From Desulfobulbaceae bacterium (GTDB lineage: Bacteria > Bacteroidota > Ignavibacteria > Kapaibacteriales > UBA2268), in contig JAGXRP010000058.1 in NCBI GenBank assembly GCA_018335795.1, positions 11,520-75,519 of the forward strand: 64,000 bases of DNA, given 5' to 3'. Positions 1,047-59,979 of this stretch are shown piece after piece (position 1 is the stretch's first letter; the number at the start of each line of letters is the position of its first letter). The notes beneath the pieces were generated by a model, which was not told where the DNA came from, did no database searches, and saw only the letters and a program-made list of their open reading frames with translations. Position numbers and translations under genes: made by a program.

Positions 1047-1156
1047 TTTTGCTTAATAAATTTGGTAAAACAGCTAAATTTAAGTAATTTCGTAAATTAA
1101 TTATTAGTCATATTTTGAAAATTTAATTGAAGATTTAACAGATTTTGAAAAACTAA

Positions 1157-2572
<1,416 letters not shown>

Positions 2573-2595
2573 TTTATTTTTGGCATAATTTTCAA

Positions 2596-2633
2596 AATGG
2601 GCTGTCCACCAAGGGCAGTCCATTTTTTTTTTC
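2596..2633 (+). terminator. Rho-independent terminator downstream of tnaA-like gene
   Basis: TGGGCTGTCC-ACCAA-GGGCAGTCCA imperfect hairpin (one G.U wobble, one bulge) followed by T9-T10. Confidence 0.65.
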
Positions 2634-2660
2634 TGTGGGGTTGGGGGATAGGGGTTAGGG
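2634..2660 (+). other. G-quadruplex-forming motif (four G4-5 tracts) on + strand
   Basis: ctGTGGGGTTGGGGGATAGGGGTTAGGGG: four G-runs with 2-3 nt loops; conspicuous in an AT-rich genome. Confidence 0.5.
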
Positions 2661-2807
2661 GTCTTTACCCCGAAGGGGTAACATGTTTATAGGAAAAAAT
2701 GGGTCTCATGTCTGTGTCTTTACCCCGAAGGGGTAACATATTTATAGGAAAAGGTTCTCCCGTCTCGTGTCTTTACCCCGAAGGGGTAACATGTTTATAG
2801 GAAAAAA
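2661..2807. repeat. Three tandem ~37-bp direct repeats (period 53-55 bp), each containing a CCCC-GAA-GGGG hairpin
   Basis: gtctttaccccgaaggggtaacatgtttataggaaaa at 2661, 2716, 2769 (1 mismatch in copy 2); 16-bp spacers are also similar to each other. Confidence 0.85.
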
Positions 2808-2819
2808 GGTCCCCAACCC

Positions 2820-3974
2820 CTAAACTTCCTTCTTTTCTTTTTTATGAATGTTATGACCACCACGACCCGGTGACCAATTAAAATTTATACTATTTAACTG
2901 TCTGATTTGTTCTTCTGTTAATTGATAATTAAAATGTCCTTTTTTAACTTTCCTTATATAACGCACCCACTCTGATAATTTTCTATTTTCATTCGGAATT
3001 GAAATGTTGCCATTTTCCTCATAAAACTTTTTAAGTAATTTAAAGTTCAATTCCCAATTGTGTTCCTCCCAATGCCATATAAATCCAATTTCATTTAATC
3101 TTCGTTTTTTATCTTCCGGCAATTCACCTCTTTTCGTACGTTGACGATGTACCCAATAATAGAATAATCTGTCTTCGTAATTTACAGGAACATGACAGTG
3201 ACCATACTTATTTTTAAATTCTAACATTTTATTAAAATTTAATTCCCAATCATTCTCGAGAATTGATTCTTTAAGGTTAAAATTAAAATTAATGTTATTG
3301 AGTAATAAAATTTTATCTTTACTCAGCATATTGCGATTATAATACCAAATTTGTTTGCAACACCATCTGTTTAACCGATTCAAACTTTGCCCATTATAGC
3401 CTTGCGTCATATCCCGTTGAACGTAGGCAACACCGTGTTCTTCATAGTAATCTTTCAGCCAACCATACATTTCATCCCATTTATGCCGTTTAATTCCCCA
3501 GTCAAATTCAAGTTCATCAAGAAGTCTAATTCTCTCATCAGAAAGTCTTTTCTTGTGATAGCGCTGTTCTCCGACCCATTTGCCAAGCTTAAAATATTCA
3601 TTATCATATTTTGGAACATTACTATGACCAAATTTATTTTTATAATCTAATAATTCCTCATATCTTCTATGCCAGTAAGTATCAAGTGGTTCAAATAAAA
3701 AACCTGCATCCTGGAGTTGTTTAAATCTCCAGTCTTTCAGCAATCCTCTTCTTGCTTGTACTCTTTGAGTATTTGCCCATCTTGCAATAATTCCTATTTC
3801 GGGAGTAAATCTTGGACTTTCCGGCTCACAAGCTATTCTTTGATGTCCGTTTTTGCGAACAATTTCTTGCCATTTATTTAGTTTTTCTATCCATATTAAA
3901 TCCCATTTTTCATGAAGGGTCAATTCATCAACAGCGTAAACTTTTCGCCTATTTCTTACGACTACTTTAGCCAT
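2820..3974 (-). CDS. Helicase-associated (HA) domain repeat protein (five tandem HA domains), co-operonic with type IIG RM enzyme
   Basis: Five ~65-aa repeats each with W..(F/Y)..L..(F/Y)...GH..VP......LG.WV..QR........L...R...L..(I/L)GF.W signature of PF03457; start codon overlaps stop of upstream gene at 3974. Confidence 0.75.
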   Translation of the reverse strand: MAKVVVRNRRKVYAVDELTLHEKWDLIWIEKLNKWQEIVRKNGHQRIACEPESPRFTPEIGIIARWANTQRVQARRGLLKDWRFKQLQDAGFLFEPLDTYWHRRYEELLDYKNKFGHSNVPKYDNEYFKLGKWVGEQRYHKKRLSDERIRLLDELEFDWGIKRHKWDEMYGWLKDYYEEHGVAYVQRDMTQGYNGQSLNRLNRWCCKQIWYYNRNMLSKDKILLLNNINFNFNLKESILENDWELNFNKMLEFKNKYGHCHVPVNYEDRLFYYWVHRQRTKRGELPEDKKRRLNEIGFIWHWEEHNWELNFKLLKKFYEENGNISIPNENRKLSEWVRYIRKVKKGHFNYQLTEEQIRQLNSINFNWSPGRGGHNIHKKEKKEV

Positions 3975-6900
3975 TATTCTCCCTCCACAATCCTTATTTC
4001 TTCATCGCTCAATTCGTAGAGCTGATAGACGAGTTGGTCTATTGTGCGGTCGGTTTGGTTGATAATTGCTTTGATTTCCTGCGCTTTCGATGTCATTCGG
4101 GTTAGGCGTTCCGACCAGTCTTCTTTGTGTACGCCTTTGAGTTCGATTTTTAGCTTGCGGAGTTCGGCGGTGAAGTCTGCCCAACTGAGTTCGTACCAAT
4201 TTTGCAGTTTGGTGCTTAGTTTTTCGATGCTGAAATCTGCTTTCAGTAGGTCAAGAAATTTATTCTTTACATCCTGCAGCTCTTTATTTTTCTCAAGCAT
4301 AATATCGGCAAGCTCTATGAATGGGACTTGTGCTTCAGGAGATATGTTTGGAATGGGTAATTCTTTACATTGTCCAAGTTTTGCTTTTGGAAAAACATTG
4401 TCGAATTCTGAAAAATTGAATTTAAAGTAATAACCTAATAAAGTTGAATTCAATATTGTAAGAATAAATCTATAATCATAATTTGAATCTTCTGAAATTA
4501 ATTTGCAAACATGAGCAGTATTTTTTGTGGTGTAGTCATCACTTACAAATGTAGCAATAATACCCCTTGTATCAGGTATTTCTCTAATAATTATTCGATC
4601 TCCAATAAAAATATCTTTCTTTCTAGGAGCCGCTAACCATTCACCATATTTAATGTACTCATTCATCCAATCAATTTGATACCTTTTAATATTATTCCCA
4701 GATAGATGTTTCAAATAATCATCAGATATTTTATAATTTGAATTAAATACTTTATTAATTACATCGGATGAGGTTTGTTTTGGAATACCTTTCCCAATCT
4801 CATATTCTTTCAAACCACTATAAAGATTACATATAGAATTTAACTTTATGCTATTTTGATTTACTTTTTCAATTAGCTTTTTTGTTGAGTCATTTTGAAA
4901 TAATTGAAAATCTCCATGTTCTTTGATGTTATCTTGTATAATCTCGGATGATTTAGTAATATTATTATTTATTAGTTCGGATGTCTGAATTATATTATTT
5001 TCAACGTACAACTTTTTAGCTATAATTATTGAATTATCAACCTTAATTCCTTCGAATACTCCCATTGGTAATATTACTAAATCATTAATCGTATGTTCTG
5101 ATAGTATTGATGTTCTAAAATTAACTAATGTTAAATTATTTATCCAAGAGTTTGGAATAATTAACCCAAGAGTTCCATTTAATGATAACAAATCAAATGA
5201 AAGTTTTGTAAATAAAAGGTATAAATCTAATTGATTTTTTTGAAGATTATACTTTAAACTTAAATAATCACTTTGAATTGATATATCTTTATTATCAATA
5301 TTAGTAACATACGGTGGATTGCCAATAACGACATCGAAGCCGCCGGAATATTCTAATTTATCATTTATTTGAGCATCGGCTTGTGCATTATCCTTATTTA
5401 TCAATAAATACAAACGGTCAACTTCATCCATTATAGAATTACACACACCCTCAAAACTGTTCATCACTTCTAAATTATTGAATCTTATAACTTTAATGCC
5501 ATAATGATTTAATATTTCGGAACGGACACTGTCGTATTCAAGCCCCTCATCACTAAAATGCGAATCGCCGTCAATTTCGATTGCCAACTTCACCTCGGCA
5601 ATATAAAAATCAACGATATAATTGTCAATAGTTCTCTGCCTTAAAACTCTGAATTTGAAATCATGCAGAAAGTGATACCAAAGCTTTTTCTCGGGCGCTG
5701 TCATATTTTTCCTCAACTCTTTCGCCCTATCAATGAGTTTCGGATTATACGGCAAATAATATTGCGAATAAAGCAGCCCTCTTTTGATAATCCAATCTTT
5801 CATATGCGCATAAGAATCCCCCTTTAATTCCCCCTTGGAAAGGGGGATTTCGCCCATATCATGATTTAATTCCCCCTTGGGAAGCGGAATTTCGTCCATA
5901 TCTTCATCAAATTCGTCCATATTTTTATTTAATTCCCCCTTGGAAAGGGGGATTTCGCCCATTTCATGATTTAATTCCCCCTTGGGAAGCGGGATTTCGT
6001 CCATATCTTCATCAAATTCGTCCATATTTTGATTTAATTCCCCCTTGGAAAGGGGGTTAGGGGGATATGACTTCTCATCTATTTTGGGATATGCGCCTGA
6101 TTTTGAATTAGAATTATAAGAATCCCCCTTTAATTCCCCCTTGGAAAGGGGGATTTCGCCCATTTCTTGATTTAATTCCCCCTTTTTAAGGGGGTTAGGG
6201 GGATATGACTTCTCATCTATTTTGGGATATGCGCTTAATTTTGAATTCAAATTATAAGAATCCCCCTTTAATTCTCCCTTGGAAAGGGGGATTTCGCCCA
6301 AATAACGATTAAGTTCCCCCTTTTTAAGGGGGTTAGGGGGATATGACTTTTTAACTTTAAACACCTGCGGAAATTCCTTCGCCCAATCAAATGCTTTCTC
6401 GCCTGCTACTTCGGGGTCGTCTATCAGTGAGTTGCCGCATTTGATATTACTTGTGAGCGTGTTTAGTTTTCTGCCTTTTTGTGCAGTCCGCAGCCATAAG
6501 GAAAGTTTTGCGATTTCGACGGATTCTTCATTTATATCCACACCGAATATATTATTTTCGAGTATGTCGGTGGTAATATCGGCAAAAACTAAGCCACCAC
6601 CAAATAGCAATGCCCGCAGTTCATCGAGCTTTCTGTGTTCTTCAATTAAAAATTCGAGCGCCTGATTCAAAAATGCTCCGGAGCCGCAAGCGGGGTCAAG
6701 TATTGTGATGGTAAGTAGCCAGTTGCGATAATTTGTGATTTTTGCGTCGAGTGCAATGATTATGTTTTTATCTTTTTTGGTTCTTTCGATTGCATAATCT
6801 TCGGGGTTGATGCCGAATTGGACGCGTTTTTCAGCACATAATTTACCGACAGTATTTTCAACGATATATTTTGTGATGTATTTGGGAGTATAGTAGATGC

Positions 6901-8017
6901 CGTCTTTTTTGCGTTTGGATTTTTGGGTTTCGACTTTTTCGCCCATGATTTCCGCCTGCACGTTTTCAATTTCACCAAGTGAATGCTCGAAAATATGCCC
7001 GAGAATATTGACATCGACTTCTGTATCGAAATCGTATTGGGATAGTTTCAGGGTATGACTGTATAGGATTTCATCATCAATTGTGATGTTGTCCAAAATT
7101 TCATCTTCAGCGAAAAGCCCGCCATTATAGGCAAAAACCTCCATGTGCTTATTTTTGTATCCGGTGTTCAGGTAGCCGAAATATTTTTTGAATCTGTCGT
7201 AGAGCGGCACGTATTCATCAAGTACATCACGCAGAGTTTCCCAATGATTTATAATTTCCCTGATGGAATTTGGTGGCAGAAGCAGTCGGTCCTCAGCGAA
7301 AAATACGAATAAAAATCGATCGAGAAGTTTTTGCGTCTTCTTGAAAAGCAGAAGTTTGTCGAGCTCGGGATTATTTTTTATCAGATTATTATAAATAGCG
7401 TTGCGGAATTTGGAGTAATCGGCATAAAGCTTTTTGGTAATGTCTTCTTCCTGCAATAGGGAAGATTCCTTGATTTTGAGCGGCACATCATTTAGCAGAT
7501 TATCTTTGCCTAGACAGAGCCACAGCAGAGAAAATTGATTACGCGAAAGATTGAACAAATCAAAATCAATGTAATCAACGGCATTTTGGATATAAAAACG
7601 CAATTTGCCGAAATTTGAAGTGATGACATAAATACATTTTGGATGATGATTTTTGTAGCCGAACGCCTGGGATTCGATAGTGTCAAGGTCGGTAGTGGAG
7701 AGCGATTTCAGTTCGATGACGGCAAGGGCTTCATCACCGCGTAAGATAGCACCGTCGGCTTTGCGGCTGTTGGTGATATTTTTATATTCGGAAATTAGGT
7801 TGTAATCCGGCTCGGGCTGTAGTGTATAGCCCAAAATTTTGACGAATAATTCCCGAAGGAAACCTTCCTGAAATTGTTCTTCTTTGGCAGATTTAATATT
7901 TAGCTGAATCAGCTTATTGCCGAAATATTCCATAAATGCGGAATACTTGACATCAATGAGTGTGGAATCCAACTCATTTAGATATTTTTTCTCAACTGAC
8001 TTTTGAAATAAACTCAT
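3974..8017 (-). CDS. Type IIG restriction-modification fusion enzyme (N-terminal PD-ExK nuclease + Eco57I/MmeI-like gamma-class N6-adenine MTase + TRD) carrying a ~332-aa in-frame insertion
   Basis: N-term ADGAIL...AVIELKS (PD-ExK); MTase motif I ILDPACGSGAFL; NNIFGVDINEESVEIAKLSLWL; CGNSLIDD; FDWAKEFPQVF then insertion then GGFDVVIGNPPYV (motif IV). Confidence 0.75.
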   Translation of the reverse strand: MSLFQKSVEKKYLNELDSTLIDVKYSAFMEYFGNKLIQLNIKSAKEEQFQEGFLRELFVKILGYTLQPEPDYNLISEYKNITNSRKADGAILRGDEALAVIELKSLSTTDLDTIESQAFGYKNHHPKCIYVITSNFGKLRFYIQNAVDYIDFDLFNLSRNQFSLLWLCLGKDNLLNDVPLKIKESSLLQEEDITKKLYADYSKFRNAIYNNLIKNNPELDKLLLFKKTQKLLDRFLFVFFAEDRLLLPPNSIREIINHWETLRDVLDEYVPLYDRFKKYFGYLNTGYKNKHMEVFAYNGGLFAEDEILDNITIDDEILYSHTLKLSQYDFDTEVDVNILGHIFEHSLGEIENVQAEIMGEKVETQKSKRKKDGIYYTPKYITKYIVENTVGKLCAEKRVQFGINPEDYAIERTKKDKNIIIALDAKITNYRNWLLTITILDPACGSGAFLNQALEFLIEEHRKLDELRALLFGGGLVFADITTDILENNIFGVDINEESVEIAKLSLWLRTAQKGRKLNTLTSNIKCGNSLIDDPEVAGEKAFDWAKEFPQVFKVKKSYPPNPLKKGELNRYLGEIPLSKGELKGDSYNLNSKLSAYPKIDEKSYPPNPLKKGELNQEMGEIPLSKGELKGDSYNSNSKSGAYPKIDEKSYPPNPLSKGELNQNMDEFDEDMDEIPLPKGELNHEMGEIPLSKGELNKNMDEFDEDMDEIPLPKGELNHDMGEIPLSKGELKGDSYAHMKDWIIKRGLLYSQYYLPYNPKLIDRAKELRKNMTAPEKKLWYHFLHDFKFRVLRQRTIDNYIVDFYIAEVKLAIEIDGDSHFSDEGLEYDSVRSEILNHYGIKVIRFNNLEVMNSFEGVCNSIMDEVDRLYLLINKDNAQADAQINDKLEYSGGFDVVIGNPPYVTNIDNKDISIQSDYLSLKYNLQKNQLDLYLLFTKLSFDLLSLNGTLGLIIPNSWINNLTLVNFRTSILSEHTINDLVILPMGVFEGIKVDNSIIIAKKLYVENNIIQTSELINNNITKSSEIIQDNIKEHGDFQLFQNDSTKKLIEKVNQNSIKLNSICNLYSGLKEYEIGKGIPKQTSSDVINKVFNSNYKISDDYLKHLSGNNIKRYQIDWMNEYIKYGEWLAAPRKKDIFIGDRIIIREIPDTRGIIATFVSDDYTTKNTAHVCKLISEDSNYDYRFILTILNSTLLGYYFKFNFSEFDNVFPKAKLGQCKELPIPNISPEAQVPFIELADIMLEKNKELQDVKNKFLDLLKADFSIEKLSTKLQNWYELSWADFTAELRKLKIELKGVHKEDWSERLTRMTSKAQEIKAIINQTDRTIDQLVYQLYELSDEEIRIVEGE
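5348..6343 (-). mobile_element. In-frame insertion inside the MTase catalytic domain: complete DUF559 (Vsr-like PD-(D/E)xK endonuclease) unit plus upstream repeat array
   Basis: Inserted segment translates MKDWIIKRGLLYSQYYLPYNPKLIDRAKELRKNMTAPEKKLWYHFLHDFKFRVLRQRTIDNYIVDFYIAEVKLAIEIDGDSHF...GIKVIRFNNLEVMNSFEGV (canonical DUF559 from its own Met). Flanking MTase residues FPQVF and GGFDVVIGNPPY are normally ~10 aa apart in Eco57I-family enzymes. Confidence 0.5.
5805..6343. repeat. Array of nested direct repeats (~138-bp super-unit, 46 codons) built from CCCCC-N7-GGGGG hairpins; in frame within the ORF, encoding PLSKGEL / SYPPNPLKKGEL peptide repeats
   Basis: ttaattcccccttggaaagggggatttcgcccat x5, ttaattcccccttgggaagcgggatttcgtccatatcttcatcaaattcgtccatatt x2, aagggggttagggggatatgactt... 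x3. Confidence 0.85.
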
Positions 8018-8040
8018 ATTTAATTTATGAATATTTTTAT

Positions 8041-8070
8041 TATTAATTTACCCCAAACCCCGAACCCCAA
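8041..8070 (-). other. Canonical G-quadruplex motif on coding strand 24-53 nt upstream of the RM gene start
   Basis: Minus strand reads GGGGTTTTGGGGTTCGGGGTTTGGGG (four G4 tracts, loops 3-4 nt). Confidence 0.5.
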
Positions 8071-8076
8071 AACCCC

Positions 8077-9270
8077 TTACCGCATGTCTTTTAGTACGAT
8101 TTCGATTTCGTGAGCTAATTTTTTGTTGACTTGGTCGAATGTGCCGCTACCGTCAATTTTGACACCATTATGCAATTTCATGTATTTTGAAATTACGGGG
8201 ACTGTTCTTGTTTCGTGGTCTTGCAAACGTTGGATGATTTTTTCGTAATTGGAATCATAGGGTCGGCTGCCATCGGTTTTGCCACGTACATTTAATCTGC
8301 GAATCAATTCTAAGGTAGGGACTTCGATTTCGATTACTTTTGTGATGGACGATGTGTATTTCTTGAGCAATCCGTCCAGAATATATGATTGAACCAATGT
8401 TCTCGGGAATCCTTTGAAAATGAAACCCTTCATGTCCTGCGATTTAGAGATTTTTTCTTCAATCAATTGGACAACTATTTCATCGGGGACTAATTGACCG
8501 ATTTGGTCGGGGTTTAGAGTGCCACTATCATAAAGCTTTTTAATTTGGATTCCGTATTCAGTTTGCATTTCAACTTCGCTTTCTAACATATCGCCGGCTG
8601 AAAGGTATTCGAGACCGAATTTTTCGGCTAATGCTCTGCCTTGGGCGCTACGTCCCGAGCCCGGATAGCCGAATAGAACGACATTGAGCAAGCTCTTGCT
8701 GAGTTCTTCTTTGACGATTTCGGTGATTTGGTCTTTGACACCTTTGATGTCCAAAAGTCCATTGACCTCTTTGTAATTGCCGCGGTCTTTGAAAAATTTG
8801 AGCACGGGCAACGTTTTTTGGTTGTATTCTTGCAATCGTGTTCGGATTACGCTTTCGTTGTCGTCGGAGCGGCTCGAAGATTTTCCTCTGCCGAGAAGCC
8901 TTTTGACGGATTCTTCTTCAGGCACATCAATGCTGATTAGGCAATTTAGCGAGGTGTTGAGCTTGAGCATCAAGCCTTCGAGTATATAGGCTTGGACGTA
9001 GGTACGCGGGAAGCCGTCGAAAAGAAAGCCGTTGAATGAGGTATTTTCGGTGATTGTCTTTTCAATTATTTGGACTATGATTTCGTCAGAAACCAAGCCG
9101 CCGGACGCGATGACGCTTTTAACTTCTTTGCCGATTGGCGTATCGAGTGAGATTTCATTTCGGAGCAAATCGCCTGTCGAAATGTAGAATAAATTGTATT
9201 TCTTAATTAAATACTCTGACTGTGTTCCTTTCCCTGCACCCGGAGGTCCAAATAGTGCTATGTTCAACAT
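8077..9270 (-). CDS. adk: Tandem-duplicated (fused) adenylate kinase; second domain has degenerate P-loop
   Basis: Domain 1: FGPPGAGKGTQ, LFDGFPRT. Domain 2 directly fused: FGYPGSGRSAQG (Walker-A Lys->Arg, GT->SA), FKGFPRT retained; both short-LID type. Confidence 0.85.
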   Translation of the reverse strand: MLNIALFGPPGAGKGTQSEYLIKKYNLFYISTGDLLRNEISLDTPIGKEVKSVIASGGLVSDEIIVQIIEKTITENTSFNGFLFDGFPRTYVQAYILEGLMLKLNTSLNCLISIDVPEEESVKRLLGRGKSSSRSDDNESVIRTRLQEYNQKTLPVLKFFKDRGNYKEVNGLLDIKGVKDQITEIVKEELSKSLLNVVLFGYPGSGRSAQGRALAEKFGLEYLSAGDMLESEVEMQTEYGIQIKKLYDSGTLNPDQIGQLVPDEIVVQLIEEKISKSQDMKGFIFKGFPRTLVQSYILDGLLKKYTSSITKVIEIEVPTLELIRRLNVRGKTDGSRPYDSNYEKIIQRLQDHETRTVPVISKYMKLHNGVKIDGSGTFDQVNKKLAHEIEIVLKDMR

Positions 9271-10841: not shown

Positions 10842-11363
10842 TTAAATCCTAAAAATCATTGCGCCGGGTTTCAAACTTGAAGTGAACATATCCAAGACTT
10901 TGAATTGCTCAATCTGACTGAAATGATGCATAACATTCGAACAAATTATAGCATCAAAATCTGTACCGACGCTTTTAAATGTCAGCAAGTCATGTCGTTT
11001 GAATTGTACTTTGCTGCGTATGATTTCCGAAACTTGATAATGTGCATTATTTTCGCTGAAATACTTGTCTAATATGGCTTCGGGTATATTGAGTAAATTA
11101 TTTTTTGGGTAAATCCCTTTCTCAGCACTTGATTTGAAAGTTCGCAATTCGTCAATATCAGTAGCTATAATTGTGATTTTGTCCGAATATGATTGGAGTC
11201 CGATTGACTCCGCCAATAGTATCGCCATTGTGTATGTACTTTGGCACATTCCGCATCCGGCATCCCAAATCCTTATTTCGGCTTGATTGTTTATTCGGTT
11301 TTTGACATGAGCAACAAGTTCGGAGATTAGCTCAACATTTTTATAAAATTGCGAGAAGGACAT
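10842..11363 (-). CDS. CheR-type SAM-dependent protein methyltransferase catalytic domain only (no N-terminal CheR helical domain)
   Basis: RIWDAGCGMCQSTYTMAI, ATDID, GIY, FDAIICSNVM, LKPGAMIF align with CheR motifs. Confidence 0.65.
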   Translation of the reverse strand: MSFSQFYKNVELISELVAHVKNRINNQAEIRIWDAGCGMCQSTYTMAILLAESIGLQSYSDKITIIATDIDELRTFKSSAEKGIYPKNNLLNIPEAILDKYFSENNAHYQVSEIIRSKVQFKRHDLLTFKSVGTDFDAIICSNVMHHFSQIEQFKVLDMFTSSLKPGAMIFRI

Positions 11364-32103: not shown

Positions 32104-35100
32104 ATGGGGGTTATTATGAAACTCTTACTACGTTTAGGTAAAATCAGAAATGCCTTTTTACTGTCTCTGGTTATTGGTTTTATAGCCTTGACTATTACTG
32201 ATTCTTACTCACAATCTAACCGTCCTGAGATACCGAAATTGAGTTTAATGGGACAAGACGAATCCTATGACACTGATTTCTATCCGGATGGAAGAATTTG
32301 GGTTCCGCCAACCACAACTGGCGCACGAGAATTTTTAGTACCTGTGTTTATCACAAACAACTGGTATAGCTATACTAACGCACAAGGCGTTGCATTGTAT
32401 TCGGTGAATCCGATTACAAGTTTTGAGTTTTCGATTTTCTATAATGGTGAAGCAGTTCGCGCGATTGGCGTCGAAAAGGCACATCCATCATTTGTAAATG
32501 ATTTGGATTATGAACCTTTAGCAAGCACCTTCGAAATAAAAACCGATGACTTCGAAGACGATTATTATTGGTACTACATCAACCCGAATAAATGGAATGA
32601 TGCACGTGACAATGAAAATGGACGTAGGATAAATATTACAGGCGCTTCTGCTAAATATCTTCCTAACACTGATAGACAATTCAAAGAATACAAAGTTATG
32701 TTGTATGTAAGATTTAGAGTTATTGCAACAAGCAAACCCGGAGACCCTGGTTTCCAATTGTTACAAACATCACCTATGTACATTGACAACAGAAAAGTCA
32801 AATACAACGAGATGGATGTTGCTACAGATTTAGCATGGCAACATATGACAGACTATGATATAAATAACTATCGTAATCTTTACAATCGCGTTTTGATAGG
32901 TCCAAACAGAGGTAGATTAGATGGCAATTTGTTTGTTCCCGAATCATACTTAGATGGGTTGAACAATGCTCCAATTTCCGAAGATGATAACAATATACTT
33001 CTTCCGGGTCCATTACAAGATGATGCGATGTGGAAATCCGAACCTGTACTTCCGGGTGTAATTACATTGAAGATTTCTGATGCGGTGCCTAAATTTAGAG
33101 TAGCATCAGTTACAGATGATGAATATGAGTCATTCGATAATGGCAGTCTTTACTATTTGCCTCAGGTTGTCACAGTTGATGATAATTCACCTGAAGTGAT
33201 TGGTATAGCTAGAATTAAAATCACTAACAGTACAACCAAATCAAGACTTAATAATATTCGTATCGAAACTGATAACGATTGGTTAAGATTGAATACAGAT
33301 GAGCTTAATCAAAATAGAACTCTACGTACTAGACCTCGTGACGCTAATGCAAAATGGCTTGATAATGGGATTTTAGGTTTTGAATTAGATCCTATACTCA
33401 AAACTACACAAGACGATGGTGATATTTTCTTAAGAATATCGGCTGACCCAAAAAGATTGACAAATAAAGGTGATGAACCTTGGGGACTTCATGAAGGTTT
33501 TGTAACTATCCATTCCGATTATTCAATCGTAAGTCCGGTAAGGGTTAGAGTATTATTCTACTTCTTGGCAAATCCGTTTGAACCTTCATTAACTAAGACT
33601 TCTCCTGGTGGTATTAACCTAAAAGTTACTAATTCTCAAGGTGCAGCAGGTACGTCTTTAAATATGGTATTCGGTACTGGCAATAGAGCTACTGACGGTG
33701 TTGATTTACTTTATGGTGAAAGAGCTTATACATTTCCTTTGTCAGCATCTAACTTTGATGTTCGTTTCTTCCCATTCCCTGCTAATCCTGCAATTCCTTA
33801 TGGTTTTGGAGATTTTGCACCTAACGTAAATGGACCAAGAACTATTTCACGTGACATCAGAAATCACAATATGCCTGATAGTATTAACTCTTATATTTAT
33901 CTTGCTCGTTTCAACAATGCTGCTGCGGATTATCCGATTATTGTTGAATGGGATACTCGTGACTTCCCCGATGGAGCACAATTGTTTATTCGTTCGGTTC
34001 TTCAAGGTGAATTGTTACCGGCTACTGATATGAGATCGGCTACTTCTACAGGCGATTTTACACGTGCGTTTACAATTCAAGACCCAAGAGTCAAAGAATT
34101 TAGAATTGAATATACTTTACCAAGTGCTATTGATTTTCTTGATTCAGAAGGCAATCCTATCATCAAATATGGTTGGAATTTGCTTTCGATGCCTTTGAAA
34201 CCAACTAACAGCAAATGGGATGTCGTTTACAAAAACGCAATTAATATCCCTTATGCTTTTGTTAATACTCAATATCAACCAAGAGAAATTTTGAAATTTG
34301 GTGAAGGATATTTTGTAAAATATCCCAAAACTGTTGATACAAAATTTGCAGGTGCTTTTGTTACCCAAATTGGTGCTCCTGTTGATCAAATTCGTGTATT
34401 TGGTGGCGACGCTCCAGATCCGGGTGACCAACAATACAGAGGTGGTTGGAATCTAATTGGTGCTCTTTCGGTAGAAACAAGCACTGATGGAATATTATTC
34501 ACTCCAACACCTGACGGTTCTTTACCTAATACTGATTATACGAAACGTTATGATGTTTGGGGTTACAGAACTGACTTAGGCTACCATGCAGTTTCTATTT
34601 TAACTCCCGGCTTTGGATATTGGATTAAAACTTCAGGCGATGGTTTCCTTAGATTGATTGAAACACCAAATAATAAAGTAATCGGTGGTAGTTCAGCTCA
34701 ATTAACAAAACAAAACATTCTTGACAAATCACAAATGATTAGTGTTCGTGATAATGCACAGAAATCTACTCAATTATACATATCGAATAATTCCAATTTG
34801 GAAGTTGACAATTTTGAATTGCCACCAACTCCTCCGTTAGGTCTGTTTGATGTTAGATTTAAAGATAATAGTTACTTGACCAATGCATTGGAAAATGTAA
34901 TAACTCTTCAAGGTGCTACATATCCGGTATCATTCACAGTTAACAACGCAGAAACTAATTTGACATTTATTGACCCTGTAACAGGAGAGGTTTATGGTAC
35001 AATCGAAGCCGGTAAATCAGGTTCGGTCCAAATTAGAAATCTTCCGTTTAACTCTGTGAAAATCATGAAGCCAACAAGTAGTGATATCAGTTCATTTGAA

Positions 35101-35349
35101 TTTAGTACTTATCCTAATCCTGCTACTCATAATGCTACAATGACTATTAATTTACCTGAAAGCGGTAACGTCGTTGTTGGATTATATGATGCATTAGGTA
35201 ATCAAGTTGCTGTTTTATTGAACCAAGAAATTGCTGCCGGTCAATACATTCACAATGTTGATTTGACTGCTTATGCTTCAGGAAGCTACACTTTGAAAAT
35301 TGTAGCAGGTCAATTTAGCACAGCTGCCAAATTGAACATCGTGAAATAA
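32104..35349 (+). CDS. Large secreted protein (1081 aa) with T9SS C-terminal sorting domain
   Basis: TM/signal N-terminus; C-terminal YPNPATHNATMTINLPESGNVVVGLYDALGNQV...GSYTLKIV. Confidence 0.65.
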   Translation: MGVIMKLLLRLGKIRNAFLLSLVIGFIALTITDSYSQSNRPEIPKLSLMGQDESYDTDFYPDGRIWVPPTTTGAREFLVPVFITNNWYSYTNAQGVALYSVNPITSFEFSIFYNGEAVRAIGVEKAHPSFVNDLDYEPLASTFEIKTDDFEDDYYWYYINPNKWNDARDNENGRRINITGASAKYLPNTDRQFKEYKVMLYVRFRVIATSKPGDPGFQLLQTSPMYIDNRKVKYNEMDVATDLAWQHMTDYDINNYRNLYNRVLIGPNRGRLDGNLFVPESYLDGLNNAPISEDDNNILLPGPLQDDAMWKSEPVLPGVITLKISDAVPKFRVASVTDDEYESFDNGSLYYLPQVVTVDDNSPEVIGIARIKITNSTTKSRLNNIRIETDNDWLRLNTDELNQNRTLRTRPRDANAKWLDNGILGFELDPILKTTQDDGDIFLRISADPKRLTNKGDEPWGLHEGFVTIHSDYSIVSPVRVRVLFYFLANPFEPSLTKTSPGGINLKVTNSQGAAGTSLNMVFGTGNRATDGVDLLYGERAYTFPLSASNFDVRFFPFPANPAIPYGFGDFAPNVNGPRTISRDIRNHNMPDSINSYIYLARFNNAAADYPIIVEWDTRDFPDGAQLFIRSVLQGELLPATDMRSATSTGDFTRAFTIQDPRVKEFRIEYTLPSAIDFLDSEGNPIIKYGWNLLSMPLKPTNSKWDVVYKNAINIPYAFVNTQYQPREILKFGEGYFVKYPKTVDTKFAGAFVTQIGAPVDQIRVFGGDAPDPGDQQYRGGWNLIGALSVETSTDGILFTPTPDGSLPNTDYTKRYDVWGYRTDLGYHAVSILTPGFGYWIKTSGDGFLRLIETPNNKVIGGSSAQLTKQNILDKSQMISVRDNAQKSTQLYISNNSNLEVDNFELPPTPPLGLFDVRFKDNSYLTNALENVITLQGATYPVSFTVNNAETNLTFIDPVTGEVYGTIEAGKSGSVQIRNLPFNSVKIMKPTSSDISSFEFSTYPNPATHNATMTINLPESGNVVVGLYDALGNQVAVLLNQEIAAGQYIHNVDLTAYASGSYTLKIVAGQFSTAAKLNIVK

Positions 35350-55941: not shown

Positions 55942-58900
55942 TTGAAAATAACATTCTTTATTTTAATAGGGGTTTTTATGAAAATTATGAAACTTTTGGT
56001 TTTGGTAGTAATGTTCTTGCTACCTGCGGTTTTATTTAGTCAAAATCCGGTACACTTTACTTTTACAAGTGTAACGGGTAATAATATGACAGTTGTCGTG
56101 CCTTTAGCGGTTAACCCGACTATCAGCGGAGTACCATTATCAGCGGGTGATGAAATTGGTGTTTATACTCCCAATGGACTTTGCGTAGGTGCAACTGTAT
56201 GGACAGGTACAAACAATCGTTCAATAACTGTTTGGGGCGACAATGACCAAACTGCGGTAGTTGACGGAATGGTTGCCGGTCAAGCTGTACATTTTAGAAT
56301 TTGGGATAAATCAGAAGATATTGAATATTCAGTCGTTACGGCTACATGGGTCGGCGGCGGAACTCGTACATACTCAGCTGGTTCTTTTTCTCCAAACGTA
56401 GCAACACTTCAGGCTTTCTCAGTTCCTGCTCAGCCAAATATCACAGCTCCTGCAGATAATTCTGTTGGAAATGCATTGAGTGGTAATATTGTATGGGATG
56501 CTGCGAGCGGAGCAGACGATTATGACGTTGTATTATCGGCAAACAGTAATTTTTCAAGCCCAATTATAAACTCAAACACGACTAACACAAGCTTAGCTTA
56601 CTCAGGTTTGAATTTTAATACAATGTATTACGTACGCGTAAGAGGAAATAATGACGTTGGTGCAGGTGCATGGGACGAAGTTTCCTGGAAAACTAAATTA
56701 GGTCAAGTTACACTTATTAGCCCGGCTAATGGCGCTACAGGTTTGATGGAAAGCGGTACTTTATCTTGGAACTCAGTTTCCGGTGCTGCCAACTATGACC
56801 TTACAATTGCTACAGATGCAGGATTTACAAATGTTGTGGTCAGCACAAATGTTGCAGGTACTTCATATAACTATTCAAACTTTAACAATTATCAGACTTA
56901 TTACTGGAAAGTTCAAGCTAAAGACGGCTCCAACACAGGCGATGTGTCAGCTACTAGAAACTTCAGAATAAGAGTGGGAAGCCCCGTAATCACAGCTCCG
57001 GCTAACGGTTCGACAGGATTAGCTTTAAATGGCAATGCTGCGTGGACTGCTGTTACCGGCGCTACAAAATATCGTATGCAAATTGCAACTGACGCAGCAT
57101 TTGCGAACGTTATTCAAGAAGTAAATAATATCACTCTTACAAACCAAAATTATACAGGTTTGAGCAACTATACTAATTATTTCATTAGAGTATTTGCAGG
57201 TGATGCTGATGGCGAAGGAATTGTTTCGGCTACTGTTACATTTAGAACTATACTTGGTATCCCGACTAACCTTACTCCTGCAAACGGTTCTTTTGCTCGT
57301 CCTTTGGCAGGCAATTTGACATGGAGTGCTGTAACTGGTGCTACTACTTATAATGTTCAAATTTCTACCAATGCTACATTTACAAATATCATAGTTGATG
57401 CCAATAATGCAACTACAACTTATGCTTATGCAGGTTTGAATAACAACACTCAATATTTCTGGAGAGTTAGAGCCGGCGAAGGTGGTGGTGTTTTCAATTC
57501 ATTCTCTGCTCATACAAGTTTCACTACTTTGTTAGGTCAAGTTGTATTGAATACTCCTGCTAATAATGCTACCGGTGTTTCGCCTTTGAGTGGAACCTTT
57601 ACTTGGACTGCATTATCGGGCGCTACAAATTATCGCATTCAAGTTGCAACAGATGTTAATTTCGCTAACATTGTTATCAACCAAGACGGTATTGCAGCTA
57701 CCAATTTCAATTATACAAACTTGAATAGTGTTACAACTTATTTCTGGAGAGTAATTGGTTATAATGCAAACGATGCAGGACAAAATTCTGCAGTATTCCA
57801 ATTCTTGACTTCTCTTGGCAAAGTTGCACTTGTTGCACCTGCTAATAATGCAGTCGGCGTTGAATTGAACGGCGTGAATTTCTCTTGGACTTCTGTGAAT
57901 GGTGCTGAATCATACAGACTTCAAATTTCAGAACAAGCTGACTTCTCAGCTTTTGTTGTCAACACTGGCGGAATTGCAGGAACTTCAACTGTAATTAATG
58001 GCTTAATGTACAACAAAACATACTATTGGAGAGCAAATGCTCAAAATACTAATAATGGAGAAGGTCCTGTAAGTGATTCACGTTCATTCCAAACGAAAGT
58101 CGCTGCTCCGACTTTGCTTACTCCGGTTAATAATGAAACGGATGTAATTCTTGATGGTCAAATGACTTGGACAGCTGTCACAGGCGCTGATTCATACCAA
58201 GTTCAAGTTTCATTGGTTAACAATTTCTCTTCAACAGTTATTAGCGCTACTAACGCTACTACGACTTATAATTATTCCGGTTTGGAAAATAACAAACAAC
58301 ATTTCTGGAGGGTAAGAGGAATCAAAAACGGAGGTTTCGGTGATTGGTCATCTGTATTTACTTTCGAAACTATGAGCCTCGCAGCTCCTGTACTTTTATC
58401 ACCGGTTAATGGAAAATTGAATCAATTTCTTGACGTAACTTTCACATGGGAAGCCGTTACTGATGCAACAGGTTATAACTTCCGTTTAGCATCTGATGCC
58501 GGATTTACTAATATCGTTGCTTCAGGTAATAACTTAGGCACTACATCATTCAACGTTACAGGGTTATTCAAAGACAGAAAATACTATTGGCAAGTCCAAA
58601 CAGTCGGTTTGCAAGGTGTTTCAAACTGGTCAACTGCATTCAATTTCACAACAATCAAAGCTCCAATCGTTTCAGGTCCGAATGCTGTTTGCCAAAGCAG
58701 CCAAGGAATGTATTCGACAGAATTCTTCGATTTCATTGATTATCAATGGACTGTCACAGGCGGTACTATCGTTGGTCCTTCGACACTATCAACGGTTACT
58801 GTCAACTGGGGAACAAATGCTTCCGGTACTGTTAAAGTTACTCGTAGTTCTGCTGAATGGGGTACTTATACAGACAACGCAACAATGAATGTATCATTGA

Positions 58901-59979
58901 CTCCAATTGCCTCGATTGCCGTTGGTATTGATGCTGAACATTATTACGAAGGCAACGCTTGTATGAACGAAACAATTAAATTTACAGGAACTACAAGCAG
59001 TGAAAATCCTGTAGTTTGGAGTTGGAATATGGGCGACGGTACTATGAAATCAGGCAAAATCGTATCGCACGTTTATGCAACTCCGGGTGATTATACTGTC
59101 ACTCTTACTGTTACAAACGGTGTGTTCTGCGAACGTGGCGAAGAAACTTACGACATTGAAGTTCGCGATGATTGCCCGCTAACTATACTCAGAGATGCTG
59201 AACTTGAATCATGTAAAGAAACTTCACCTACATTCCAAAGTGTAGTATTTGGGGGTTCGGGAGATTATTCATTTATTTGGGCTCCTGCAGCTGACTTCGT
59301 TAATGCAACAGTCCTTAATGCAACTCTCAAAAGAGCAGTTTTCTCGAAAGAATATAAACTTACAATATTTGACAACGAAAGCGACGAAACATTAGTTACT
59401 TATCCTTATCTTAAAGTATTGGCTTCACCAAGTGCATCTTTAAGTAAAGGATTTGTTGTCGTCAAGGGAATGGGCTCGATTGATTTGACTGACCCTTCAA
59501 TTTTAGTTGTTTCCGTTTCAGGTGGTCAAGCTCCTTATATTCACAGATGGGTTGATGCAAATGGTCAAGAAGTTGACCCGACCAACGTTAATCCTCCGGT
59601 AGGCTCGACTTCATATTATTTGACTATAATTGACGATAATGGATGTTTGTCTGTCGAAAAAAGATTCATCGTATTCCGTTCAGCTTCGAAAGATGCTATT
59701 CCTGAAGATGTCGTTGCCGGTGTTTCAGGTACAGGTTACATGTTCACTTATCCGAACCCTGTTGTTGACAATATGAATATCATTGCCGAATTTGACGAAC
59801 AATCATACACTACTTTAAGAGTTATGAATTTGTTAGGAGAAGAAGTTCTTTATATTAATCTTGGTTCGATGAAGAGTATCGAAACTGAAATCAGCCTTCG
59901 TCATTTGACTAAAGGATTCTACAACTTAGTTGTCGAAACTGAAAATAATACTTTCGTTAAGCCATTCATCAAAGAATAG
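55942..59979 (+). CDS. Secreted protein with ~11 tandem FN3-like repeats, PKD domain and T9SS CTD
   Basis: Repeats with W(T/S)AV(T/S)GA..Y..Q(I/V)ATD..F.N; PKD (WSWNMGDGT...GDYTVTLTVTN); C-terminal YPNPVVDNMNI...FYNLVVE. Confidence 0.7.
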   Translation: MKITFFILIGVFMKIMKLLVLVVMFLLPAVLFSQNPVHFTFTSVTGNNMTVVVPLAVNPTISGVPLSAGDEIGVYTPNGLCVGATVWTGTNNRSITVWGDNDQTAVVDGMVAGQAVHFRIWDKSEDIEYSVVTATWVGGGTRTYSAGSFSPNVATLQAFSVPAQPNITAPADNSVGNALSGNIVWDAASGADDYDVVLSANSNFSSPIINSNTTNTSLAYSGLNFNTMYYVRVRGNNDVGAGAWDEVSWKTKLGQVTLISPANGATGLMESGTLSWNSVSGAANYDLTIATDAGFTNVVVSTNVAGTSYNYSNFNNYQTYYWKVQAKDGSNTGDVSATRNFRIRVGSPVITAPANGSTGLALNGNAAWTAVTGATKYRMQIATDAAFANVIQEVNNITLTNQNYTGLSNYTNYFIRVFAGDADGEGIVSATVTFRTILGIPTNLTPANGSFARPLAGNLTWSAVTGATTYNVQISTNATFTNIIVDANNATTTYAYAGLNNNTQYFWRVRAGEGGGVFNSFSAHTSFTTLLGQVVLNTPANNATGVSPLSGTFTWTALSGATNYRIQVATDVNFANIVINQDGIAATNFNYTNLNSVTTYFWRVIGYNANDAGQNSAVFQFLTSLGKVALVAPANNAVGVELNGVNFSWTSVNGAESYRLQISEQADFSAFVVNTGGIAGTSTVINGLMYNKTYYWRANAQNTNNGEGPVSDSRSFQTKVAAPTLLTPVNNETDVILDGQMTWTAVTGADSYQVQVSLVNNFSSTVISATNATTTYNYSGLENNKQHFWRVRGIKNGGFGDWSSVFTFETMSLAAPVLLSPVNGKLNQFLDVTFTWEAVTDATGYNFRLASDAGFTNIVASGNNLGTTSFNVTGLFKDRKYYWQVQTVGLQGVSNWSTAFNFTTIKAPIVSGPNAVCQSSQGMYSTEFFDFIDYQWTVTGGTIVGPSTLSTVTVNWGTNASGTVKVTRSSAEWGTYTDNATMNVSLTPIASIAVGIDAEHYYEGNACMNETIKFTGTTSSENPVVWSWNMGDGTMKSGKIVSHVYATPGDYTVTLTVTNGVFCERGEETYDIEVRDDCPLTILRDAELESCKETSPTFQSVVFGGSGDYSFIWAPAADFVNATVLNATLKRAVFSKEYKLTIFDNESDETLVTYPYLKVLASPSASLSKGFVVVKGMGSIDLTDPSILVVSVSGGQAPYIHRWVDANGQEVDPTNVNPPVGSTSYYLTIIDDNGCLSVEKRFIVFRSASKDAIPEDVVAGVSGTGYMFTYPNPVVDNMNIIAEFDEQSYTTLRVMNLLGEEVLYINLGSMKSIETEISLRHLTKGFYNLVVETENNTFVKPFIKE

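Follow-up and report, generated by a model that had tools for sequence, protein, structure and literature searches.

A free-standing HA-domain array coupled to a type IIG restriction-modification gene: a possible accessory within a strain-variable cassette

Why should a protein made of five helicase-associated (HA) domains be encoded in tight coupling with a type IIG restriction-modification (RM) gene, and does the enzyme need it? The question is raised by a stretch of 64,000 nucleotides (nt) of contig JAGXRP010000058.1 (GenBank assembly GCA_018335795.1), hereafter the window, in which two genes follow one another on the minus strand, at the coordinates and with the stop/start overlap reported in an earlier note on this DNA:

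2820..3974, minus strand: HA x5 gene, 384 amino acids (aa), pI 9.5, NCBI MBS4000820.1
3974..8017, minus strand: type IIG RM gene, 1347 aa, NCBI MBS4000821.1

NCBI names the products "helicase associated domain-containing protein" and "DUF559 domain-containing protein", respectively, and labels the metagenome-assembled genome (MAG) Desulfobulbaceae; the RM protein equals P0043 at 100% identity. The HA protein had been proposed to be an obligate partner of the enzyme that may supply target recognition or regulation. We tentatively favor, at somewhat less than an even chance, a looser relationship in which HA would be an optional, lineage-restricted DNA-binding accessory, neither a specificity subunit nor an essential one.

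The two genes have base 3974 in common, where the RM stop codon TAA and the HA start codon ATG overlap as TAATG, and this 1-nt overlap bears out the tight coupling that had been described. The sequence GGAGGGAG lies immediately 5' of the junction, with a GGAGGG stretch resembling a Shine-Dalgarno sequence supplied by the final RM codons, and HA is probably translationally coupled to RM. Overlaps of 1 nt are frequent among operon genes, and this one is evidence of co-transcription, not of joint function. Scans for sigma-70 promoters and for terminators remained at background level, with models unsuited to the host organism. Programmed frameshifting or readthrough joining RM to HA was considered and rejected. 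At the related locus L020 the HA ATG lies in the RM frame with TGA-GAG between the two (177-185), and readthrough there would yield an RM-HA fusion; unlike in L020, the HA frame of the window differs from the RM frame. The frame relation differs between the two loci, and neither a slippery site nor a consistent signal for recoding is seen.

Whether the enzyme requires a partner can be judged from its own domains, which are the following:

7706..7759, minus strand: PD-ExK-type nuclease motif ADGAIL...AVIELK, aa 87-104, read from the translation
6668..6700, minus strand: methyltransferase (MTase) motif I LDPACGSGAFL, aa 440-450, from the translation and the RM protein alignment A3
5306..5347, minus strand: MTase motif IV SGGFDVVIGNPPYV, aa 891-904, from the translation and A3
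4352..4711, minus strand: TaqI_C-type target recognition domain (TRD), aa 1103-1222, PF12950 at 69.4 bits against a cutoff of 26.5
3977..4054, minus strand: conserved RM C-terminal tail TDRTIDQLVYQLYELSDEEIRIVEGE, opening the DNA block that loci L001 and L020 also carry

The RM protein matches the PADLOC profile REase_MTase_IIG (PDLC03609) at 879 bits, with residues 1-554 pairing with profile positions 1-554 of 1066 before the match breaks and later resumes. Its Pfam matches comprise Eco57I (137 bits) and MmeI_Mtase (43.4 bits), each exceeding its cutoff, as well as N6_Mtase and TaqI_C. Of the six further rows in A3, all but one keep the motif ADGAIL...AVIELK, the exception being the unrelated L001 enzyme, and by analogy with the MmeI family the D...ELK residues of the motif would be catalytic. 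DPACGSGAF stands at aa 441-449 and GNPPY at aa 899-903, so that every catalytic motif of the host enzyme (D...ELK, DPACGSGAF and NPPY) is intact, and TaqI_C is present. With a full-length profile match that includes the N-terminal nuclease region, a gamma-class N6-adenine MTase and a built-in TRD, the window protein is, as judged by its sequence, a complete single-polypeptide MmeI-like type IIG enzyme. The earlier assignment to type IIG is thus upheld by the PADLOC and Pfam matches, but the enzyme is not a plain one: a 335-aa insertion composed of hairpins and a DUF559 domain, described below, had been overlooked.

The enzyme has the same order of parts as MmeI/Eco57I-family enzymes, that is, PD-ExK nuclease, helical spacer, gamma-class N6-adenine MTase, TaqI_C TRD and conserved tail. 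As in the MmeI family, the TRD also varies between close relatives, the TaqI_C region being variable among otherwise close RM orthologues in A3. It differs from these enzymes in the 335-aa hairpin and DUF559 insert before NPPY and in the coupled downstream HA x5 gene, and to our knowledge neither the loop insert nor an HA partner belongs to described members of this group. No PADLOC model includes HA, in agreement with the view that such a partner lies outside described systems, and a literature search returned no paper describing HA partners of type IIG enzymes. An assignment to BREX or DISARM was rejected: BREX_1_MTaseX scored 126.5 bits against a cutoff of 500, and the PglX and DrmMI matches amount to generic MTase similarity. 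The companions PglZ and BrxC are absent from the locus, where the neighbors encode an adenylate kinase, an anti-sigma-type HATPase and a lyase. Since the enzyme has its own recognition, methylation and nuclease domains, it should need no partner: TaqI_C would recognize DNA, the NPPY MTase would methylate adenine and the PD-ExK domain would cut. The presence of TaqI_C in RM speaks against target recognition being supplied by HA, and we rejected HA as a specificity subunit on this ground.

The relatives of the enzyme point the same way, within a synteny sample that is small and in which many contigs are short. Four close RM orthologues were found (L007, L008/L009, L010 and L011, the last from Draconibacterium halophilum), which share 64-69% identity overall with the window enzyme in A3 and 75-92% over the N-terminal ~41-44%. 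None of the four has an HA gene downstream, which contradicts an obligate partnership. The slot after RM is empty in these orthologues or is occupied by a Y1_Tnp-like gene (L008) or by RhuM (L011). The Y1_Tnp-like gene directly after RM in L008 is the second of its kind there. In L010 the related RM copy is split into two open reading frames (ORFs).

A junction between a type IIG gene and HA occurs in three alleles only. Besides the window these are L001 and L002, where HA is 96% identical to that of the window and the type IIG stop overlaps the HA start, and L020, where HA is 76% identical and the C-terminal tail of the type IIG enzyme ends 3 nt before the HA start. The RM bodies differ among the three alleles, which argues that HA travels with type IIG genes in one lineage. 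More distant HA-family relatives (39-55% identity) have other neighbors. The gene in L004 (HA 55%) comes after DUF4365, with GmrSD and Fic nearby; that of L006/L003 (54%) starts 900 nt after a gene encoding Mrr_cat and HNH_repeat x10; and in L016 HA x9 comes after Y1_Tnp, HNH and a helicase. The L006 gene upstream of HA x6 (6440-9094) encodes an 884-aa protein with N-terminal Mrr_cat and ten HNH_repeat (PF18780) units. In L012 (HA 40%) two tandem paralogous HA x6 genes (1133-3851; 459 and 438 aa, 23 nt apart) precede an ABC transporter, from which it follows that HA-array genes can duplicate locally, away from nuclease genes. Nuclease-type genes stand upstream of HA-family members in four distinct contexts (IIG, DUF4365 with GmrSD/Fic, Mrr_cat-HNH_repeat, and helicase with HNH) out of ~9 distinct HA-family contexts.

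Judging from these neighborhoods, the type IIG enzyme exists without need of HA and HA without need of the type IIG enzyme, and there is no general IIG-HA association. The conserved co-occurrence that had been anticipated, and whose lack had been named as grounds for refutation, holds for three related alleles and fails in other lineages, in plasmid contexts and among HA fusions. Upstream of HA in L021 there is a 17/19-nt match to the RM tail, a value reached by 3 of 2000 shuffles, with other loci borderline or negative; the match is a weak hint of an RM-tail relic and could equally be a conserved purine-rich ribosome-binding region.

What, then, holds the pair together in the alleles that have it? 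The left flank of the window (omp85 to adk) is 99.2% identical to that of L001 over 6 kb, and this identity ends at 8051, within an array of short repeats. The RM bodies that follow share 23-31% protein identity, that of L001 having an HSDR_N-type N-terminus and a Y1_Tnp insert. Identity to L001 resumes at 4057, at 94.8%, and spans the last ~27 RM codons and the whole of HA; nucleotide similarity to L002 likewise begins at 4057, and that to L020 at 4054. In these alignments the conserved unit is the RM tail plus HA, with different RM bodies attached, and the RM C-terminal tail is a probable recombination joint. The tail pattern ..IDQLVYQLYELSxEEIxIVEGE is kept across the enzyme family in A3, HA-less orthologues included. 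Between the window and L001 the synonymous divergence (dS) is 0.18 for HA and 0.03 for adk and omp85, HA thus being ~6 times as diverged as the flanks, and the ratio of nonsynonymous to synonymous divergence (dN/dS) of HA is 0.11-0.13 in each of the three comparisons. The junction has stayed tight, at 0-3 nt, although HA dS exceeds 1. Purifying selection together with raised dS indicates that HA is functional and lies inside the exchanged segment.

The ends of this segment are marked by the following repeats:

8051..8076: left border, an array of C-tract heptamers (CCCCAAACCCCGAACCCCAAAACCCC) that directly follows the stop codon of the adenylate-kinase gene
2637..2661: candidate right border, an array of G-tract heptamers (GGGGTTGGGGGATAGGGGTTAGGGG) in inverse orientation to that at 8051-8076
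2661..2807: three REP-like hairpin repeats (GTCTTTACCCCGAAGGGGTAACATGTTTATAGG...; REP, repetitive extragenic palindrome), 39 nt, core TTACCCCGAAGGGGTAA, between HA and the right array

G-tract heptamer arrays occur twice in the window, only at the module ends and mutually inverted; they are telomere-like (GGGGTTn) and prone to form G-quadruplexes. The right array lies just past the terminator-like hairpin of a convergent beta-eliminating lyase gene. L001 carries the left array at 6016-6054, an inverted REP-like copy upstream of RM (6119-6172) and another copy downstream (11171-11204). Taken together, the region 2637-8076 appears to be a strain-variable defense cassette between the adenylate-kinase gene and a convergent tryptophanase-like gene, and recombination would have occurred at the tail and at the G-tract arrays. 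The gene adjoining the cassette upstream (8077-9270, minus strand), conserved in L001, encodes a 397-aa protein with two tandem ADK domains (283 bits).

Variable RM hot spots with conserved flanks are known, for example the immigration control region of E. coli. The present locus resembles them in that near-identical strains carry unrelated RM genes at one site with sharp breakpoints. It differs from classical hot spots in that one breakpoint falls inside the RM gene itself, among the codons of its conserved C-terminal tail, and in that the neighboring HA gene diverges along with the cassette.

The HA protein itself matches PF03457 in five stretches at 199.4 bits (E 8.5e-60), far above the cutoff of 28.4, and has no further family in Pfam, NCBIfam, PADLOC or PHROG; its description as 384 aa of HA domains and nothing else is thereby confirmed. 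The profile of its family matches the solved HA domain 2kta (E 7e-6). An AlphaFold model shows five three-helix units and, outside them, a short N-terminal beta hairpin (residues 5-12), with a mean predicted local distance difference test score (pLDDT) of 79.5 and a predicted template modeling score (pTM) of 0.36. A fold search with the whole chain of this model returned nothing at E <= 0.001, the pTM of 0.36 making the domain arrangement unreliable. DNA binding by the HA domain is attributed to the 2kta work (Mills 2013), as cited in PMC12191111. By analogy with this literature the window protein would bind DNA, and its basic pI is consistent with this.

In the literature, HA arrays appear as fusions with PLD nucleases, with helicases and, in Tn7-like elements, with the target selector TniQ. 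The window array resembles arrays fused to helicases, Mrr domains, PLD nucleases or TniQ in belonging to the same domain family, in its tandem arrangement and in its tie to DNA-acting enzymes, and differs from them in being a separate polypeptide beside a type IIG enzyme. HA arrays as a whole number 26,014 cluster representatives (E <= 0.001), and free-standing arrays of 5-10 repeats recur among them, so that the free-standing state is not the anomaly it had been taken for. Among 38 long HA-array proteins, SF2 (superfamily 2) helicase domains were found in 19 and Mrr domains in 3. The close HA family is rare (42 proteins at E <= 1e-5) and is represented by one locus in 185,579 species genomes and by four metagenome loci, too few for statistics. 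An alignment that included distant family members gave no usable pattern. Close relatives are missing from viral contigs, and a phage origin or an anti-restriction role of HA was rejected on this finding together with a single weak match in a phage collection and the lack of a PHROG match. One protein, P0028, combines HA and HNH_repeat in one chain, and on this account the two families may be related DNA-binding modules. C-protein-controlled RM operons offer a parallel, since there too a restriction gene is expressed together with a small DNA-binding protein. C proteins are helix-turn-helix proteins of ~80 aa encoded upstream of R, whereas HA x5 of the window has 384 aa, is encoded downstream and matches no helix-turn-helix family.

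The insertion carried by the enzyme that precedes HA has the following extent and parts:

5345..6349, minus strand: in-frame insertion of ~335 aa (aa ~557-891), between EFPQVFK and GGFDVVIGNPPY
5807..6349, minus strand: GC-stem hairpin array (CCCCCTTnnnAAGGGGG), TRF (Tandem Repeats Finder) periods 42, 105 and 138, repeat families D1 and D2
5420..5734, minus strand: DUF559 (Vsr-like PD-(D/E)xK) endonuclease domain, aa 762-866, PF04480 at 92.3 bits against a cutoff of 20.6

The insertion occupies the MTase loop between motif I and NPPY and is missing in the uninterrupted orthologues P0044 and P0049 (~1010 aa). It is free of stops in the host frame, for which the chance is ~9e-12; 27 and 39 stops were counted in the two remaining frames. 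Its first 180 aa are coded by tandem hairpins that yield the peptides PLKKGE and PLSKGELKGD; all 12 hairpins of the C4-5/G4-5 type in the window fall within 4000-8000 and were placed in the insert by inspection. The DUF559 domain sits between the two halves of the Eco57I MTase as delimited by Pfam, and its core YIVDFYI...AIEIDGDSH (VDF...EIDG..H type) is common to homologues. Against the L010 copy its dN/dS is 0.03, with dS saturated, and by this comparison the segment is under strong purifying selection. An intein was rejected: no Hint or intein family is among the Pfam matches, and Gly follows the insert (..EYS|GGFDVV) in place of a splice-junction Cys, Ser or Thr. As there is no Hint or splicing domain, the insert is presumably retained in the mature protein. 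The enzyme is probably functional despite it.

The same loop has received other domains. Among the 120 homologues listed for the window RM, 22, such as P0045 and P0074, have a Y1_Tnp (RAYT-like) domain in-frame between EFPxVF and GGFDVVIGNPPY, and so does the otherwise unrelated RM of L001 (L001 6243-10001). These inserts show an HUH-like DHVH motif and a YIxxN motif. Their presence in the same loop argues that the MTase loop is a permissive site. The window module has no Y1_Tnp match in Pfam and is thus not a REP/RAYT system, in which a Y1 HUH transposase accompanies REP hairpins.

Close relatives of the DUF559 insert (P0310-P0429) are found in-frame within many unrelated proteins. They are nested in MnmA (P0319) and chorismate synthase (P0417), where the host domain is split into two stretches, and inside HsdS (P0317); others are N-terminal on RnpA, CysQ and PALP enzymes or C-terminal on PrmA. 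Most are flanked by hairpin-coded peptides (PPTPLNKGG and similar), and stand-alone forms of ~195 aa have such a peptide at both ends. From these relatives, the hairpin and DUF559 unit looks like a selfish nuclease-carrying element that enters coding sequence with the frame kept. It resembles Rickettsia palindromic elements, in-frame insertions like miniature inverted-repeat transposable elements, and inteins in lying within coding genes with the frame unbroken, its relatives being spread over many unrelated genes. The window cassette differs from the Rickettsia elements in bearing a nuclease ORF and from inteins with homing endonucleases in having no Hint or splicing domain. Such in-frame comparators are mentioned in PMC1779305, PMC10969869 and PMC2677866. 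Literature searches found no description of DUF559 or RAYT domains inserted in-frame in MTases and no account of in-frame invasion of unrelated genes by a DUF559 cassette.

We propose that these observations are best joined as follows. The type IIG enzyme would be self-sufficient, and one surface loop of its MTase would tolerate the selfish insertion. HA x5, co-transcribed with RM, would be a basic multi-domain DNA-binding protein, a non-covalent (split) counterpart of the arrays found joined to helicases, Mrr domains and PLD nucleases. Different type IIG bodies would have been joined to the tail and HA block by recombination in the conserved C-terminal tail, and HA, as a DNA binder, would modulate the place or the efficiency of action of the neighboring nuclease.

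Several findings weigh against a role of HA beside the enzyme. A single conserved DNA block is common to all three IIG-HA loci, which hence represent one evolutionary event, not independent replication, and recombination in the shared tail could have kept the tight junction without selection. No RM neighbor occurs in any of seven plasmid HA contexts and no nuclease neighbor of the HA-family gene in five further contexts (L005, L017-19 and L021), and none of the 38 long HA-array proteins is fused to Eco57I or N6_Mtase. The conserved N-terminal motif MAKVVVRNRRKVY of HA also occurs in family members that do not adjoin a type IIG gene, and this independence of the neighbor argues against a IIG-specific interface. 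The right border of the cassette is read from the window alone, with the L001 and L002 contigs ending inside the REP-like repeat, and any effect of HA on restriction by RM is one that we infer. Much of this, together with the four HA-less orthologues and the Y1_Tnp-like gene or RhuM that may fill their slot, would suit an unrelated passenger at the 3' edge of a defense hot spot, whether nucleoid-associated, regulatory or the remnant of a mobile element, that is co-transcribed through genome compactness. Such a passenger is a serious if rather unlikely alternative, given that HA, ~6 times as diverged at synonymous sites as the core flanks, moves with the cassette, that the junction was retained at HA dS above 1, and that nuclease-type genes precede HA in nearly half of the distinct contexts. 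A closer bond is also conceivable: HA could be a trans-acting DNA-binding subunit that is shared by interchangeable type IIG enzymes and docks on their conserved tail, a split counterpart of the nuclease-HA and helicase-HA fusions, with RM and HA exchanged together at the G-tract borders. We hold this to be improbable.

Three further proposals are less likely. If HA were an obligate subunit of a non-canonical type IIG system, providing target recognition or regulation, the stop/start overlap with its upstream GGAGGG, the junction conserved in three alleles and the DNA binding ascribed to HA domains in the literature would fit, but the enzyme has a TaqI_C specificity domain, co-occurrence is confined to one lineage while all four orthologues lack HA, and Eco57I-HA fusions are absent from the long HA proteins. 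Moreover, L001 joins a near-identical HA to an RM of 23-31% identity with an HSDR_N nuclease type, and with such an unrelated enzyme specific subunit contacts are unlikely, the shared tail aside; we give an obligate subunit very little credence. Scarcely more probable is that HA serves the maintenance or mobility of the cassette by recognizing the border G-tract heptamers or the REP-like hairpins and promoting or guiding exchange. The restriction of G-tract arrays to the two module ends, the REP-like copies at both ends in L001, the HA-TniQ fusions of the literature, and the company of HA with Y1_Tnp and HNH in L016 and with homing-endonuclease repeats in P0028 are in its favor, yet the cassette has no recombinase or transposase besides the nested DUF559 (RAYT-like in L001), G-tract arrays are missing near HA genes at other loci, and the idea is purely correlative. 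Decay of the locus, with RM crippled by the 335-aa insertion and the pair a remnant that has no present joint function, might be read from the large insertion that parts MTase motifs I and IV and from the related L010 copy in two ORFs. It is nevertheless quite improbable: the 1347-codon frame is intact with an insert that would hardly be stop-free by chance, no catalytic motif is missing, the loop is a permissive site that takes a Y1_Tnp-like domain in 22 of the 120 homologues listed, and DUF559 and HA are both under strong purifying selection.

The taxonomic label of the contig deserves comment. The window encodes two large proteins (32104-35349 and 55942-59979) that end in Por_Secre_tail domains, sorting domains of the type IX secretion system (T9SS), which are typical of Bacteroidota and relatives. 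The relatives of the window RM come mostly from Bacteroidales and Ignavibacteria. The T9SS domains and the taxonomy of the RM relatives make the Desulfobulbaceae label ill-fitting and the taxonomy uncertain, and the label may be a binning error of the MAG.

MmeI-like type IIG enzymes are regarded as self-contained. Should HA modulate RM, they would have a first described DNA-binding accessory, and a role would be found for free-standing HA arrays, which form a large family on which we know of almost no literature. If a docking subunit shared among enzymes proved true, type IIG restriction would gain a new class of accessory, and cassette hot spots a new kind. The locus also shows turnover of RM specificity between strains that are 99% identical, in which whole RM bodies are swapped onto a fixed tail and HA block. 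Finally, the settling of DUF559 and Y1_Tnp-like cassettes in-frame in RM and housekeeping genes is an under-described behavior, and such nuclease cassettes matter both for annotation, as in the RM gene that was named after its DUF559 domain, and for our view of selfish DNA in coding regions.

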